DNA from: Candidatus Falkowbacteria bacterium
Lineage (GTDB): Bacteria; Patescibacteriota; Patescibacteriia; CAIXNZ01
Direction of reading: 5' to 3'
NCBI GenBank assembly: GCA_963774955.1
Contig: CAVZGV010000004.1
Location: forward strand, 67,522-131,521
DNA: 64,000 nucleotides
Of this stretch, positions 4,387 through 52,538 are shown piece by piece. Every line of letters starts with the position of its first letter. The first letter of the stretch is position 1. The notes under the pieces are model-generated. The model was not told the origin of the DNA, ran no database searches, and saw nothing but the letters and a program-made list of their open reading frames with translations. A program made the position numbers and the translations under genes.

Positions 4387-5427
4387 TTACACTTCCAGGT
4401 TCGGATCCACCTTAACATCCCGCCAAGATTCGCTAAAATTCGCTAAACCATCTTTGGCCTGAAAATAAGCTGCTACTGCTACCATTAAAGCATTGTCAGT
4501 AGTCAAATGCAAGTCAGGCTGAAAAAATTTTACTTGTGGTAATTTCGCTTCTACTTGTTCTGCCAATTGACGTCTTAATTCTTTATTAGCCGCCACACCG
4601 CCACCAAGTAATAAAGACTTAACTTCATATTTTTCCGCTGCTTTTAAGGTCTTGGCAACCAAGACATCAATACTAGCCTGCTGAAAAGACGCGCACATTT
4701 TACGAATATTCCCATTGTCTTTGAATTTCTCTTTTGCCCACTCATATTTAACCGCTGTTTTTAAGCCGGAAAAACTAAAATCAAAATCCTTAGTATAAAT
4801 CATTGGGCGCGGTAATTTGAAATATTCAGAGTCAGCGTTGGCCGCATATTTAGAAATTATCGGACCGCCCGGATAACCCAGCCCCATAATTTTAGCGGCT
4901 TTATCAAAAGCTTCGCCAACAGCATCATCACGGGTTGAACCAATGGTTTTAAAATTATTGGGATCTTTAAGTAAAACCAAAGAAGTATGTCCGCCGGAAA
5001 CAACCAGACATAAAGCCGGGTATTCTATTATTTCCAATTCGCCTTGTTCGCCCTTTAAATAATTAGCCAGAATATGCGCTTTAACATGATTAACCGGAAT
5101 CAAAGGTTTATGCCAAACCATGGCTAAAGTCTTGGCGGTTTCTACGCCAACAATTAGAGACGTTATTAATCCCGGACCATAAACTACGGCAATGGCATCA
5201 ATTTTTTCGGGTTTAACTTTTGCTTGTTTCAACGCTTTATCTAAAAGCGGCAACATATTTTCCATGTGCTTGCGAGCCGCCACTTCAGGCACGACTCCGC
5301 CGTATTTTTTATGAATGTTAATTTGTGAGGCCACGAAATTAGCCAAAACTTTAAATTTCCGGTTATTGATTTCCAGGATAGCAACTGCGGTTTCATCGCA
5401 GGAGGTTTCTATTGATAAGATTATCAT
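4387..5427 (-). CDS. tsaD: tRNA N6-adenosine threonylcarbamoyltransferase TsaD (Kae1/Gcp)
   Basis: N-terminus MIILSIETSCDETAVAIL, ASKHA fold motifs, 346 aa. Confidence 0.9.
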   Translation of the reverse strand: MIILSIETSCDETAVAILEINNRKFKVLANFVASQINIHKKYGGVVPEVAARKHMENMLPLLDKALKQAKVKPEKIDAIAVVYGPGLITSLIVGVETAKTLAMVWHKPLIPVNHVKAHILANYLKGEQGELEIIEYPALCLVVSGGHTSLVLLKDPNNFKTIGSTRDDAVGEAFDKAAKIMGLGYPGGPIISKYAANADSEYFKLPRPMIYTKDFDFSFSGLKTAVKYEWAKEKFKDNGNIRKMCASFQQASIDVLVAKTLKAAEKYEVKSLLLGGGVAANKELRRQLAEQVEAKLPQVKFFQPDLHLTTDNALMVAVAAYFQAKDGLANFSESWRDVKVDPNLEV

Positions 5428-5432
5428 AATTG

Positions 5433-6047
5433 TTAATTCTCACTTATTAAATCCGGATAATTAGTATAAATATATCTATAATTCTCTGCGTCGGGAATTT
5501 TGTGCTTCATAGGATTTTCATAAATATAGCGTAAATGTTCGTCAAAATCATTTTCATTGCGGATGTAATGGTCGCGAAATGATTTTTGCCAATGGAATTT
5601 TAGAAAGTAAGTTTGGGCTTGGCCGTATTTGGCAATAAATAGCTTTCGCAATTCAAATAAATATTCGTAATGTTTTTCGATTAATCCCTCATAAATTTGA
5701 TATTTTCCCTGGTTTCGAACCCGAAGGAGCGATTTGCAAATCGCTCCTTCGGGTTCGTGACCGAGGATAAAATTTATGTGGCGGGTATAATGTCTTTTCA
5801 AAAATTGCATTATTTTGGATAAATCCTTTGATTCCATTGGAAAAAACATCAAATGAAAATGGTCTTTCAATATTACAAAGGCAAAAAGATCCATGTTCTT
5901 CATTTTCTTAACCAATCGTAATTCTTCAATAAACAATTTACAAAAAATCTGTTCCTTAAAATATTCAACACGATTATCGGCAACTGAGGTAACAAAATAT
6001 GTCGCGCCTTCAAAATATATTCTTTTTTGTGCCCCCTTGTGTAACAT
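5433..6047 (-). CDS. REP-associated tyrosine transposase (RAYT, IS200-like Y1/HUH transposase) with an internal roughly 50-aa insertion
   Basis: aligns to E. coli RAYT motifs: YFEGATYFVTSV, HUH motif DHFHLMFF, C-terminal SFRDHYIRN..EHLRYIYENPMKHK (catalytic Tyr region). Confidence 0.8.
   Translation of the reverse strand: MLHKGAQKRIYFEGATYFVTSVADNRVEYFKEQIFCKLFIEELRLVKKMKNMDLFAFVILKDHFHLMFFPMESKDLSKIMQFLKRHYTRHINFILGHEPEGAICKSLLRVRNQGKYQIYEGLIEKHYEYLFELRKLFIAKYGQAQTYFLKFHWQKSFRDHYIRNENDFDEHLRYIYENPMKHKIPDAENYRYIYTNYPDLISEN
5716..5757. repeat. perfect 42-bp palindrome inside the RAYT coding sequence
   Basis: CGAACCCGAAGGAGCGATTTGCAAATCGCTCCTTCGGGTTCG equals its own reverse complement; encodes EPEGAICKSLLRVR within an insertion not present in canonical RAYTs. 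Confidence 0.9.
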
Positions 6048-6146
6048 ATAATTATTTTAATTCTACTTAAAAAATCAACAAAAATCAAGGTTTAATATAA
6101 ATAAAAAAACCGCCTCCGAAGAGAACGGTTTTGATGTCAGCAATTA

Positions 6147-6338
6147 CTAGTCAACTGAATTTCTTTCTTCTTTTGTTTGGCCGCACTTGCAGGAAGATGA
6201 AACAACTTCCCAGCCGGCAATTGGACCTCTCTCAGCCTGTTCAACATGGCGTCCAGTTTCTTTCCAATCATGACGATGCGGTTTTTTGTTTTTCTTGCAA
6301 GTCATACTTACTCCTTTATTATTTCCTTGTCGCCCCAT
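6147..6338 (-). CDS. small Cys-containing hypothetical protein (GC-rich block)
   Basis: ORF track 63 aa; 4-nt overlap with upstream ORF; GC about 50%. Confidence 0.3.
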   Translation of the reverse strand: MGRQGNNKGVSMTCKKNKKPHRHDWKETGRHVEQAERGPIAGWEVVSSSCKCGQTKEERNSVD

Positions 6339-7150: not shown

Positions 7151-7243
7151 GCGCCGCCATCGTCTAGTGGTTAGCCTGTCCGCCTCTGGCGGAGACACCA
7201 GGTTTTTCCGCCAAAGGCGGATCCGCCTCCGGCGGACATCCTG
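7151..7243 (+). pseudogene. 5' portion (positions 1-43) of tRNA-Glu interrupted by two REP-like palindromic insertions
   Basis: GCGCCGCCATCGTCTAGTGGTTAG + insert + GACACCAGGTTTT + TCCGCCAAAGGCGGATCCGCCTCCGGCGGA + CATCCTG, compared with intact copy at 7516. Confidence 0.7.
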
Positions 7244-7255
7244 TTTAGAATTAAT

Positions 7256-7510
7256 ATGTATTATTTATATATTTTACTAAGCTTAAAAGATTCAGGTTAT
7301 TATATTGGAATAAGCGATAACCCGGAGAAAAGACTGCTTGAACATAACCAAGGTAAAACAAAATCCATAAAAAGCAGGATCCCATTTGAATTAAAATATA
7401 AAGAGGCATATAGTACTAAAACTGAAGCAAGAAAAAGAGAAATTTTATTAAAGAAAAATTATCAGATTCGCAAGGAATTACTTAATAAAATTGGATTTAA
7501 TCTTAAATAA
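7256..7510 (+). CDS. small GIY-YIG nuclease family protein inserted in the tRNA-Glu locus
   Basis: YYLYILLSLKDSGYYIGISDNPEKRLLEHNQG (GIY-YIG plus R..EHN catalytic motif), 84 aa. Confidence 0.75.
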   Translation: MYYLYILLSLKDSGYYIGISDNPEKRLLEHNQGKTKSIKSRIPFELKYKEAYSTKTEARKREILLKKNYQIRKELLNKIGFNLK

Positions 7511-7515
7511 ACCAC

Positions 7516-7587
7516 GCCGCCATCGTCTAGTGGTTAGGACACCAGGTTTTCATCCTGGTAACAGGGGTTCGATTCCCCTTGGCGGTA
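7516..7587 (+). tRNA. tRNA-Glu (anticodon TTC)
   Basis: manual fold: acceptor GCCGCCA/TGGCGGT, D-arm GTCTAGTGGTTAGGAC, anticodon stem CCAGG/CCTGG with loop TTTTCAT, T-arm AGGGGTTCGATTCCCCT; no encoded CCA. Confidence 0.8.
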
Positions 7588-8056
7588 CTAGAGCAAAAAT
7601 CACTTCTATCGCAGAGGTGTTTTTTGTTATATAAACTGTTTGATAATTTTTATTATTTAAGGTTTTTCCGCCAAAGGCGGACCCGCCTCAGGCGGGCATC
7701 CTGGTAACAGGGGTTCGATTCCCCTTGGCGGTACTAGAGCAAAAATCACTTCTATCACAGAGGTGTTTTTTGTTATATAAACTGTTTGATAATTTTTATT
7801 ATTTAAGGTTTTTCCGCCAAAGGCGGACCCGCCTCAGGCGGGCATCCTGGTAACAGGGGTTCGATTCCCCTTGGCGGTACTAGAGCAAAAATCACTTCTA
7901 TCGCAGAGGTGTTTTTTGTTATATAAACTGTTTGATAATTTTTATTATTTAAGGTTTTTCCGCCAAAGGCGGACCCGCCTCAGGCGGGCATCCTGGTAAC
8001 AGGGGTTCGCCTGCCCGCCGTAGCTTGAGCGAAGGCGGGATTCCCCTTGGCGGTAC
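7588..8056 (+). repeat. tandem repeat, 146-bp unit x about 3.4; each unit is a tRNA-Glu 3' half with a REP-like hairpin doublet in the anticodon loop plus a 73-bp spacer
   Basis: units start 7661, 7807, 7953 with 1-2 substitutions; last unit also has a hairpin insertion in the T-loop (8010-8039). Confidence 0.85.
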
Positions 8057-38059: not shown

Positions 38060-38216
38060 GCGCTTGATCGTAACAACGACTAAGCGCTTTTTAAAAACAC
38101 GGATTTATTTCACGGATAACACTGATCAATATCTTAATCTATCCATGTAATCAGTGAAATAAATCCGTGGTTTAAAAAAGCCGGCCACCCGAAGGTGCCG
38201 GCGTTGTAAGCTGCGA

Positions 38217-40313: not shown

Positions 40314-40395
40314 TTGGTGCGCGAGACCGGAATCGCCCGCCAGAGGGCGGGTCCGCCTTCGGCGGAACCCCTCTGCTAGTATTTTCCCGCGCACA
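40314..40395. repeat. composite REP-like palindromic element (nested hairpins)
   Basis: outer inverted repeat GTGCGCG/CGCGCAC; inner CGCCCGCCAGAGGGCGGG and TCCGCCTTCGGCGGA. Confidence 0.7.
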
Positions 40396-44105: not shown

Positions 44106-44177
44106 GTCCCTGTAGTTCAACGGATAGAACGAGAGACTCCTAAGCTCTAGATGGAGGTTCAATTCCTCCCGGGGACA
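44106..44177 (+). tRNA. tRNA-Arg (anticodon CCT)
   Basis: manual fold: acceptor GTCCCTG/CGGGGAC (U-G wobble), anticodon loop CTCCTAA, T-arm GGAGGTTCAATTCCTCC. Confidence 0.75.
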
Positions 44178-44185
44178 TAAGTTTC

Positions 44186-44215
44186 TCCGCCAAAGGCGGA
44201 TCCGCCTCCGGCGGA
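44186..44215. repeat. REP-like hairpin doublet inserted directly after tRNA-Arg with 16-bp flanking direct repeat
   Basis: TCCGCCAAAGGCGGATCCGCCTCCGGCGGA; flanks ctcccggggacataag at 44166-44181 and 44221-44236. Confidence 0.85.
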
Positions 44216-51464: not shown

Positions 51465-52538
51465 TTATACAACCTTTTCAAATATAATAATTGAACGCCA
51501 GACAAATTGTTTTTCCCTAAAGTATAAAAGATCTTCTTGATTTGTTGGCTGAAAGCCCAACTTTTCAATTTGCGTTAAAATTTCAATTTTACTTTGATGA
51601 TTTCTGAGATTATAAATCGGGAAAACCATAACCACTTTACCGCCCTTGACCAAGACTTTACTGAATTGCACAAAAGCCTCTAAATATAAGGACTCCAGTA
51701 TTTGAACAGTATTTTCAATCTGTTCCCGACTTTCATTGCCTCTGACCGGCGGCCCCAAAAACGGTTCGGTTACAATCGCCTCAATTGAATTAGCCTTAAA
51801 TTTTAAACTCAAATCCTTAACATCCAACTTCATTACTTTAGACTTTTCCGCCGAAGGCGGATCCGCCTCTGGCGGAAGACTTTCTACTTTAGACTTATTT
51901 AAAAGCCAGTCCAAATTTTTCTTTGTATCCTCAATCGCCCTGTCACTGTTATCCGTTCCAATTAAATTTCTATAACCCAAAACAATCGCTTCCTGCAAAA
52001 TCGTGCCTGAACCGCAAAACGGATCCAGAATCACAGCTTCAGGTTTAACCTGCGCCAAATTAATCATCATGCGCGCCAGTTTTGGCGGCAACATGCCGGA
52101 AACCTGATCCCGGCCAGGGCGGCTAAAATCACGACTGCCAAATTCTTCAAAAGCCTGCACAGCCAAGGTCTGGCCCATGGTAACGATTCCCTGATCAATA
52201 AAAAAACAAAGTTCAGCTCCGTTTTTAAGTAATTTATTCTTGGCTACAATAACTGAAGATAATTCCGGTTCTTTGGCCACCACATAACGGGAACTGATAT
52301 TTTTTTCATCGCGTAAAATTGATTTGATTTCCATGGCAATGGCAGTCATCTTTTTTTGAATAGCCTGAATATTCATCTTTGGTGATAGGGGATAGAAGCT
52401 AAAGCCAAAATAAAACTTGGCTTGTTCAAATTTAACCAGCTTAAAGAAATTATCCTGAAATTCATCAAGGTCCCCCATAGTCGCCAAAATCTTGCCGATC
52501 TTAACTGTCCCGCCCAAACGGCTGTTTAGCCAATTCAA
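51465..52538 (-). CDS. class I SAM-dependent RNA methyltransferase (THUMP-type; UPF0020/RlmL/Trm11-like) carrying an in-frame REP insertion
   Basis: DPFCGSGTILQEA motif I and TEPF motif IV; N-terminal part appears split off into ORF 52501..52719. Confidence 0.6.
   Translation of the reverse strand: MNWLNSRLGGTVKIGKILATMGDLDEFQDNFFKLVKFEQAKFYFGFSFYPLSPKMNIQAIQKKMTAIAMEIKSILRDEKNISSRYVVAKEPELSSVIVAKNKLLKNGAELCFFIDQGIVTMGQTLAVQAFEEFGSRDFSRPGRDQVSGMLPPKLARMMINLAQVKPEAVILDPFCGSGTILQEAIVLGYRNLIGTDNSDRAIEDTKKNLDWLLNKSKVESLPPEADPPSAEKSKVMKLDVKDLSLKFKANSIEAIVTEPFLGPPVRGNESREQIENTVQILESLYLEAFVQFSKVLVKGGKVVMVFPIYNLRNHQSKIEILTQIEKLGFQPTNQEDLLYFREKQFVWRSIIIFEKVV
51847..51875. repeat. REP-like hairpin doublet inserted in frame within methyltransferase CDS
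   Basis: TCCGCCGAAGGCGGATCCGCCTCTGGCGGA flanked by imperfect 12-bp direct repeat tactttag(g)actt; encodes ESLPPEADPPSAEKS between duplicated KSKV. Confidence 0.85.

Follow-up and report, generated by a model that had tools for sequence, protein, structure and literature searches.

A perfect DNA palindrome within a coding sequence raises the question of what is being constrained, the DNA, its transcript or the encoded peptide, and whether the structure is a recent arrival or an old component of the gene. We addressed this question for a stretch of 64,000 nucleotides from Candidatus Falkowbacteria (contig CAVZGV010000004.1, positions 67,522–131,521; hereafter the window), in which a perfect, zero-loop palindrome of 42 bp occupies positions 5716–5757. 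The palindrome is a REP-like element (REP, repetitive extragenic palindrome) embedded in the open reading frame (ORF) of an intact Y1/HUH tyrosine transposase gene of the REP-associated tyrosine transposase (RAYT) type, which encodes 204 residues on the minus strand (5433–6047). We consider it probable that the palindrome represents, for a distinct RAYT subfamily, the equivalent of a REP, and that one copy was fixed in frame in an ancestor and has been kept palindromic since. The finding bears on two unsettled matters: the means by which REPs and RAYTs remain matched, and the role of RAYTs in their hosts.

Conservation and covariation of the palindrome

The letters at 5716–5757, CGAACCCGAAGGAGCGATTTGCAAATCGCTCCTTCGGGTTCG, form an exact inverted repeat of two 21-bp arms with a spacer of zero, and are translated in frame to (H)EPEGAICKSLLRV(R), residues 97–111 of the RAYT; the description of an exact in-frame inverted repeat in the first-pass annotation is borne out by these letters together with the ORF. 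The palindrome is the longest perfect inverted repeat of the window. Its 21-nt arm has only two sites there, both within the palindrome itself, also when up to three mismatches are allowed; the search for other copies of the arm, proposed earlier for the genome, was run within the window and returned none. The 21-nt arm was matched in 0 of 100 shuffles, and arithmetic from the base composition gives an expectation of approximately 1e-8 to 1e-7 perfect palindromes of 21 pairs in 64 kb, in agreement with the earlier judgement that a chance origin is unlikely. Beyond the 42 bp, weaker complementarity extends to 37-nt arms at 84%. Two parts can be distinguished by alignment and pair counts: a conserved 28-bp core, GAAGGAGCGATTTGCAAATCGCTCCTTC (5723–5750), common to homologues and extragenic copies, and a symmetric extension of 7 bp on each side (5716–5722 and 5751–5757) that is specific to the lineage of the window. 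The degenerate pattern GAAGRNG-N6-24-CNYCTTC has no second match in the window besides this core. As single-stranded DNA, the 82-nt stretch 5696–5777 has a predicted folding energy of −29.6 kcal/mol (z = −10.3); as RNA, the value is −45.7 kcal/mol (z = −9.7), the stem then comprising 19 bp and the loop 4 nt. A terminator or attenuator was considered and ruled out, as no terminator-like site is present on either strand in 5300–6250 and the palindrome is flanked by no T runs.

Protein similarity was the sole criterion by which 79 loci (designated by L numbers) were drawn from GTDB species genomes. In 60 of the 79, a palindrome occupies the same position in the gene, roughly 290–400 nt into the ORF. 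Almost all of these palindromes have their centre in one and the same codon phase. Total lengths range from 24 to 70 bp, and 44 of the 60 intragenic palindromes are perfect over arms of at least 14 bp. Among the approximately 65 loci for which the match spans the site, 60 keep at least 12 of the 14 inner pairs, at protein identities down to 30–40%. The hosts belong to Parcubacteria, other Patescibacteria, Peregrinibacteria, Cloacimonadota, Spirochaetota and Margulisiibacteriota, and include metagenome-assembled genomes (MAGs) labelled Planctomycetota and Gammaproteobacteria.

The pattern of substitution was analyzed in a gap-free alignment of the 60 palindrome-centred sequences (A2), in which column i is paired with column 65-i. 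Approximately 99% of cells in the inner 14 pairs are Watson-Crick, and G:U pairs are nearly absent. The head, GAAGGCG/CGCCTTC, is near-constant, with GAAG present in about 55 of the 60 copies and paired with CTTC inside the stem (columns 19–22 with 43–46). The seven pairs inside the head, the centre included, show three to five types of pair each, and practically every cell is paired: columns 26:39, for example, contain 34 AU, 22 CG and 4 GC pairs with none unpaired, and the central pair 32:33 is GC in 32, CG in 19, AU in 7, UA in 1 and UG in 1. As the central pairs are Watson-Crick in 59–60 of the 60 copies, the palindromes are loop-free. The covariation score is 0.415 compared with 0.173 in shuffled alignments (reached in 0 of 500 shuffles), and 0.12–0.15 when the partners are slid. 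In the protein alignment (A1), the motif E-G/E-A-I-x-x-S-L-L-R is found in all close homologues, and its central residue pairs (CK, YK, GQ, RE and HE) are exactly those that a palindrome of the form ATT-nnn-nAA-TCG permits. Because compensatory change is pervasive, the constraint acts on DNA pairing and not on the peptide; the alignments indicate a DNA palindrome that is the same on both strands, rather than an RNA stem or a peptide, and the peptide follows the palindromic DNA, not the reverse. Relatives with the same segment in non-palindromic DNA, which the first-pass annotation had named as the sign of a conserved protein feature, were not what we found: the relatives keep the palindromic DNA itself.

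Orthologous loci place the palindrome in time. The tsaD gene (4387–5427, minus strand), which begins 5 nt past the RAYT stop codon, serves as a synteny anchor, and the order RAYT-tsaD-tsaE is the same in the window and in two Parcubacteria MAGs, L002 and L020, whose tsaD genes are 87% and 70% identical, respectively, to that of the window. Both orthologues carry perfect palindromes, of 44 bp in L002 and 36 bp in L020, with six and two fully compensated pair differences, respectively, within the 21 pairs of the window. Based on this synteny, the RAYT gene is vertically inherited here, unlike an insertion sequence (IS); this is not true of the whole subfamily, as some other MAGs have three to four paralogues, compared with a single RAYT copy in the window. 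The earlier suggestion that a hairpin element had inserted into the gene holds for the type of element and fails for its supposed recency, since the same position and phase recur in 60 homologues and in the syntenic orthologues. An assembly artefact as the source of the palindrome was ruled out as well: the palindrome is in frame, conserved and covarying across independent assemblies.

The 28-bp core is identical in the nearest relatives (L001, L139 and L183), whose arms reach just 14–15 bp, and in the lineage of the window the right flank, CGGGTTCG, which encodes 'RVR', now complements the conserved left flank, CGAACCCG. Because the right flank became the complement of a flank that was already there, the arms have grown in place.

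Three further observations concern the intragenic site. A single stem mismatch, GACATT..AATATC, is common to the intragenic palindromes of L024, L026 and L027, which come from different assemblies, and may be a conserved irregularity similar to the bulges of group 2 REPs. Variable in-frame insertions of 20–35 residues directly follow the palindrome-encoded segment in nine homologues (A1 columns 147–177; P0010, P0013, P0014, P0017, P0019, P0022, P0025, P0029 and P0030), one of which, P0029, contains the motif twice (AIRESLFRL ... AINQSLLRS), and the site after the palindrome seems prone to expansion. Finally, contigs or gene calls often stop at or beside the intragenic palindrome (L049, L057, L059, L068, L069 and L070), protein matches stop near residue 100, and many cluster representatives of the subfamily likewise end near residue 100, at the position of the palindrome. 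This suggests that assemblers break at perfect palindromes, with the practical consequence that metagenome contigs and gene calls are interrupted at a predictable site.

The RAYT subfamily, its dispersed elements and other repeats

The assignment of the protein to the RAYT/TnpAREP type is supported by tests of both sequence and predicted fold. It matches Pfam Y1_Tnp with 32 bits (cut-off 23) and the NCBIfam model NF047646 REP_Tyr_transpos with 95.3 bits (cut-off 80), compared with only 16.5 bits for the IS200 model (cut-off 55). The HUH motif, H63-F64-H65 (5853–5861, minus strand), is invariant in A1, as is Tyr174 (5526–5528, minus strand) in HLRYIYENP, which aligns with the Y of HVDYIYINP in Escherichia coli TnpAREP, a residue that we take to be the catalytic tyrosine. 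An AlphaFold2 model has a mean predicted local distance difference test (pLDDT) value of 89.4, and its top fold match in the PDB is 4ER8_A, TnpAREP bound to a REP hairpin (E = 1.1e-7; target-normalised TM 0.66). A subfamily profile built from 29 homologues matches 4ER8 with E = 3.8e-13. With an intact ORF, the HUH motif and Tyr174 present and a pLDDT of 89, the earlier idea that the palindrome may inactivate the transposase finds no support. The subfamily is sizeable: among 1.84 billion library proteins, 147 of its clusters (50% identity) score E <= 1e-30.

The palindrome lies in a part of the protein that E. coli TnpAREP lacks. The profile aligns with TnpAREP over residues 7–89 and 149–192, and the intervening 59 residues, 90–148 (5604–5780, minus strand), fall between TnpAREP residues 86 and 90, between helix alphaC and strand beta4; the earlier reading of a segment without counterpart in canonical RAYTs is therefore upheld by the profile alignment. 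This subfamily-specific insertion consists of the palindrome-encoded linker (97–111) followed by an extra long helix (117–141). Model confidence drops to pLDDT values of approximately 68–72 across residues 101–120 and exceeds 90 elsewhere, so that the palindrome-encoded region has the lowest confidence of the model, the N-terminal tail excepted. Short insertions between alphaC and beta4 have been reported in other RAYT subclasses, where they adjoin the REP-recognition region (Quentin et al. 2018, PMC6006769). Since such insertions adjoin that region, the insertion domain around the palindrome may, by analogy, contact DNA.

Copies of the element are not confined to the coding sequence. A scan of the loci for perfect palindromes revealed that the same genome-specific palindrome recurs beside the RAYT gene in many of them, at 50–130 nt before the start codon, a short distance past the end of the gene, or both (among others in L011, L013, L015, L016, L031, L033, L034, L039, L046, L050, L052 and L053). 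In 11 of 21 comparisons, confined to the loci recovered through protein similarity, the internal and flanking 28-bp cores are identical, and in four more they differ by one pair that has changed on both arms; by comparison, only about 5% of internal cores are identical between different loci.

An exact scan of metagenome contigs with the 28-mer pattern GAAGGMGCGATTNNNNAATCGCKCCTTC returned 127 occurrences in 104 stretches, 20 within RAYT homologues and 107 outside them. The 4-nt centre, which the pattern leaves unconstrained, is self-complementary in 116 of the 127, where chance predicts 1 in 16. One sample, Ga0051987, yielded some ten contigs with one palindrome copy on each. Some of the copies are intergenic, and several are accompanied by A and T tracts, resembling bidirectional terminators. 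Others lie in frame in ComEC (two sites), GMP synthase (GuaA), UvrC, an RluD-like pseudouridine synthase and PGA_cap, with the Pfam domains intact (L086:1621, L100:4874, L128:5621, L161:2640, L116:5029, L129:7259 and L151:424); these are usually translated as ..EGAI(R/G)(E/Q)SRL... Of the two orthologous ComEC insertions, that of L100 has 21-bp arms and that of L128 15-bp arms. Nested palindromes, in which one copy sits within the centre of another, reach 66–70 bp of perfect pairing (L082, L099:4937, L052:826 and L149:164). The 1316-bp contig of L082 is, over its whole length, a perfect fold-back around the element, and is probably an assembler artefact. A collection of viral contigs contained no match to the 28-mer pattern. 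Taken together, the scans describe what appears to be a dispersed REP-like repeat, of which the copy in the RAYT gene would be one conserved member.

Heads with GTAG in place of GAAG are rare, being limited to L063 and to extra copies in L020, L030 and L048. These GTAG-headed perfect palindromes, such as GTAGGCGCAACGACGTCGTTGCGCCTAC, are located near or inside RAYT genes (L020:4843-4870, L030:4807-4834, L048:1497-1522 and L063:3279-3308), and by their sequence they appear to link the GAAG family to the classical GTAG-tagged REPs.

The window contains other repeats that are distinct from the RAYT palindrome. A double hairpin of the form CCGCC-NNN-GGCGGATCCGCC-NNN-GGCGG occurs in seven places, with none expected by chance (7208–7235, 7668–7695, 7814–7841, 7960–7987, 40346–40365, 44187–44214 and 51848–51875), mostly directly after tRNA genes or fragments, such as tRNA-Arg (44106–44177); two of its copies contain GAAGGCGG, which is reminiscent of the RAYT-family head. 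At 7551–8009, a tandem repeat of a 146-bp unit (3.1 copies, 99% identical) starts within the 3' part of tRNA-Glu (7516–7588), each unit ending in a double hairpin. Immediately before it, the segment 7152–7510 contains an 84-residue ORF (7256–7510), GIY-YIG-like by our reading of the letters, between a 5' tRNA-Glu-like fragment (approximately 7152–7200, GCGCCGCCATCGTCTAGTGGTTAG...) and the intact tRNA-Glu; the arrangement looks like a homing-endonuclease-type insertion or a duplication at a tRNA gene. An imperfect, A+T-rich inverted repeat with 41-nt arms (85% complementary) and a 14-nt spacer is found at 38086–38181.

A proposed cis-acting site and its alternatives

How can a transposase gene come to contain, and keep, such an element? 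We propose that the elements, zero-loop, GAAG-headed, mostly perfect and built from a 28-bp core plus variable symmetric extensions, are what the encoded Y1/HUH enzyme probably recognizes, folded as hairpins on single-stranded DNA as in the characterized REP/RAYT pairs. Because the palindrome is perfect, it would fold identically on either strand. The copy fixed in frame in the transposase gene of the subfamily ancestor would then be a cis-site for the enzyme within its own gene, serving (i) as a protected master or seed copy, so that enzyme and substrate are co-inherited and co-evolve, and/or (ii) to limit expression of the gene. Its translation product would be tolerated as a surface linker only. 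Since both arms change symmetrically, in extragenic copies too, and grow in situ, the perfect arms may be produced by arm-to-arm templated copying, of the kind known as quasipalindrome template switching; this is the least certain step. A cis-acting site, which the first-pass annotation had also listed, is our best guess at a function and a plausible one by analogy, and we infer from the same analogy that the RAYT may bind or cut its internal hairpin, either for autoregulation or to preserve a master copy.

Several points weigh against this proposal. Binding or cleavage of these palindromes by enzymes of the subfamily is postulated from the behaviour of characterized pairs, and characterized REPs have loops, some of them also needing bulges (PMC8266576). 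In the present elements GAAG replaces the canonical GTAG tag and is base-paired in the stem, and a hairpin model leaves the self-complementarity of the central 4 nt unexplained. Two loci, L050 and L062, have lost the internal palindrome and kept both the insertion domain and the flanking copies; the protein can thus do without the internal copy, and the notion that this copy is essential to it was rejected. Flanking or dispersed copies were found neither in the window nor within 3 kb on either side in its nearest relatives, so that a master copy feeding a REP population is not visible in the lineage of the window. Finally, retention could be neutral in combination with mechanical homogenization.

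The last point defines a serious alternative, although one that we hold to be unlikely: an ancient in-frame REP without any function in cis, whose deletion would harm the linker and whose perfection is maintained by template switching and gene conversion. Such a passenger fits a palindrome that encodes a low-confidence linker, and it fits the presence of the same element in frame in unrelated housekeeping genes, where a cis function for a RAYT is not expected. Symmetric change is seen in extragenic copies also, arms have grown in situ in the RAYT gene and in ComEC alike, and L050 and L062 retain the gene after losing the internal copy. Less easily reconciled with neutrality is the near-universal retention across phylum-level divergence, in 60 of about 65 site-spanning loci, as is the persistence of the copy in lineages in which no nearby copies are seen that could act as conversion donors. 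Moreover, the internal core matches the locus-specific flanking copies, which points to ongoing exchange with an active repeat family rather than to isolation. Selection might instead act on a hairpin in the mRNA, through attenuation of translation, an RNase III-type cleavage site or (de)stabilization of a RAYT-tsaD transcript. The RNA fold of 5696–5777 is very stable (−45.7 kcal/mol), 5 nt separate the RAYT gene from tsaD, which follows it on the same strand, so that a structure could affect the operon, and the REPs of E. coli influence mRNA decay and translation. We nevertheless regard an mRNA-level origin of the constraint as improbable: G:U pairs, which RNA stems tolerate, are nearly absent and pairing is strictly Watson-Crick; the 4 nt at the centre, the prospective loop, are self-complementary too; and untranslated flanks to either side of the gene contain identical cores, as do other genes in any frame. 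There is, in addition, no T-tract or terminator-like site in 5300–6250, and in Rfam 15 no family comes near its gathering score, the matches being to generic long-hairpin precursors of plant microRNAs, with 26–30 bits versus 144–211.

Two further explanations are contradicted by the sequence comparisons. That a hairpin element inserted recently and disrupts or inactivates the RAYT would agree with an element class that is mobile or dispersed and able to land in frame in genes, and with the restriction of the outer 7 bp of each arm to the lineage of the window. The recurrence of the element, with site and phase unchanged, in 60 homologues and the syntenic orthologues, the intact ORF with its conserved catalytic residues and confident fold, and the 147 clusters of the subfamily leave it with almost no chance of being correct, and a recent insertion or pseudogene was ruled out by the comparison of orthologues and homologues. 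Hardly any credence can be given, either, to a purely protein-level feature, in which the peptide EGAIxxSLLR is conserved and the palindromic DNA of the window is incidental: the peptide motif is recognizable across A1, yet its residues vary only in combinations that preserve the palindrome, the 28-bp core is kept in non-coding flanks and in other frames of other genes, and, the N-terminal tail aside, model confidence (pLDDT) is lowest in the peptide region.

Returning to the palindrome as a cognate cis-site, we put forward, tentatively and as something that we think unlikely to hold in full, a stronger version in which the RAYT gene carries the master copy of the hairpin that it mobilizes. 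This copy would seed, and match, the flanking and dispersed copies, the enzyme would possibly nick or limit its own gene, and processing would regenerate the strictly symmetric, loop-free palindromes arm from arm, so that their symmetry would reflect more than selection for pairing. If true, the gene would be the smallest self-contained REP/RAYT unit, kept in reduced genomes of the Candidate Phyla Radiation (CPR) almost without other copies. Such physical coupling of enzyme and substrate could explain the co-evolution of REPs and RAYTs. The system is also a natural experiment, in which the same 28–42 bp are constrained as a DNA structure and as protein, and it offers a ready cognate substrate for the biochemistry of an uncharacterized RAYT subfamily of about 150 clusters. 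With it, REP/RAYT biology reaches CPR/Patescibacteria, Cloacimonadota and Spirochaetota, and its elements decorate housekeeping proteins (ComEC, GuaA and UvrC) in frame. Furthermore, the symmetric change and in situ growth of perfect palindromes that lack a loop are relevant to palindrome mutagenesis.

Comparison with known systems

The closest relatives of this arrangement are the 'REPtrons', in which REPs flank a RAYT gene (PMC8266576), as exemplified by E. coli TnpAREP and its REPs (4ER8) and by group 3 of Stenotrophomonas maltophilia and Marinomonas (PMC8266576, PMC5581495, PMC6006769). The likeness extends to a Y1/HUH protein of the RAYT type, to genome-specific, short, G+C-rich palindromes that bracket the gene in many relatives (e.g. 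L011, L016, L034, L039, L052 and L053), to a syntenic, vertically inherited gene, and to a head, GAAGGCG/GAAGGAGCG, that resembles GTAG-headed REPs, a minority of copies at related loci having GTAGGCG. The differences are equally clear: here one copy is in frame inside the ORF and conserved across phyla; the palindromes are loop-free and mostly perfect, so that REP and inverse REP coincide in sequence; the GAAG tetranucleotide lies within the stem; between alphaC and beta4, the protein carries the inserted 59 residues; most hosts belong to Patescibacteria/CPR, Cloacimonadota and Spirochaetota; and the window has no flanking or dispersed copies, with only the intragenic copy in it and in its closest relatives. 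Compared with classical REPs, the element is likewise a G+C-rich palindrome that flanks genes and is dispersed (in relatives and metagenomes), whereas it lacks their unpaired loop (2–20 nt, often with an imperfect stem) and has no GTAG (or CGTC) tag outside the stem. We found no description of a conserved REP within the ORF of a RAYT in the freely searchable full text, including Quentin 2018, Bertels 2017, Corneloup 2021 and Di Nocera 2013, and the conserved in-ORF palindrome is a variant of the REP/RAYT system that has apparently not been described before.

In-frame palindromic repeats as such are known. Intragenic REPs and Rickettsia palindromic elements are, like the present element, short palindromic repeats tolerated in frame within genes; they add 10–30 residues to proteins, and DNA-repair and pseudouridine-synthase genes are among the hosts of intragenic REPs (Di Nocera et al. 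2013, PMC3733652), types that are represented here by UvrC and the RluD-like gene. The host ORF, in our case the RAYT gene, is intact. Those insertions are sporadic, species-specific and in unrelated genes, whereas the insertion described here is ancient, covarying and in the cognate transposase. The subterminal hairpins of IS200/IS605 elements, which their TnpA recognizes in single-stranded DNA (PDB 2VJV, 2XM3), involve a related protein fold; these hairpins are imperfect and situated beyond the gene, at the ends of the element, and they define a mobile IS. The RAYT gene, in contrast, is syntenic, and no IS ends were found at its locus.

Quasipalindrome template-switch mutation, a subject of work in E. 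coli (the Ripley model), is a mutational process of a general kind and not a genetic element; it would explain the copying of mutations from arm to arm, the mostly perfect arms and their extension into the flanks. Sites for HUH-type initiators are known within the initiators' own genes, namely the phiX174 origin in gene A and the pT181 origin in repC. As with the RAYT palindrome, the site of a tyrosine nuclease or initiator lies in its own coding sequence and is constrained both as DNA and as protein; the two origins belong to phage and plasmid replication and their nicking has been demonstrated, whereas the present site is a dispersed repeat in a chromosomal gene. If the palindrome is indeed a target of the RAYT that it helps to encode, the origins of phiX174 gene A and pT181 repC would be its nearest functional analogies.

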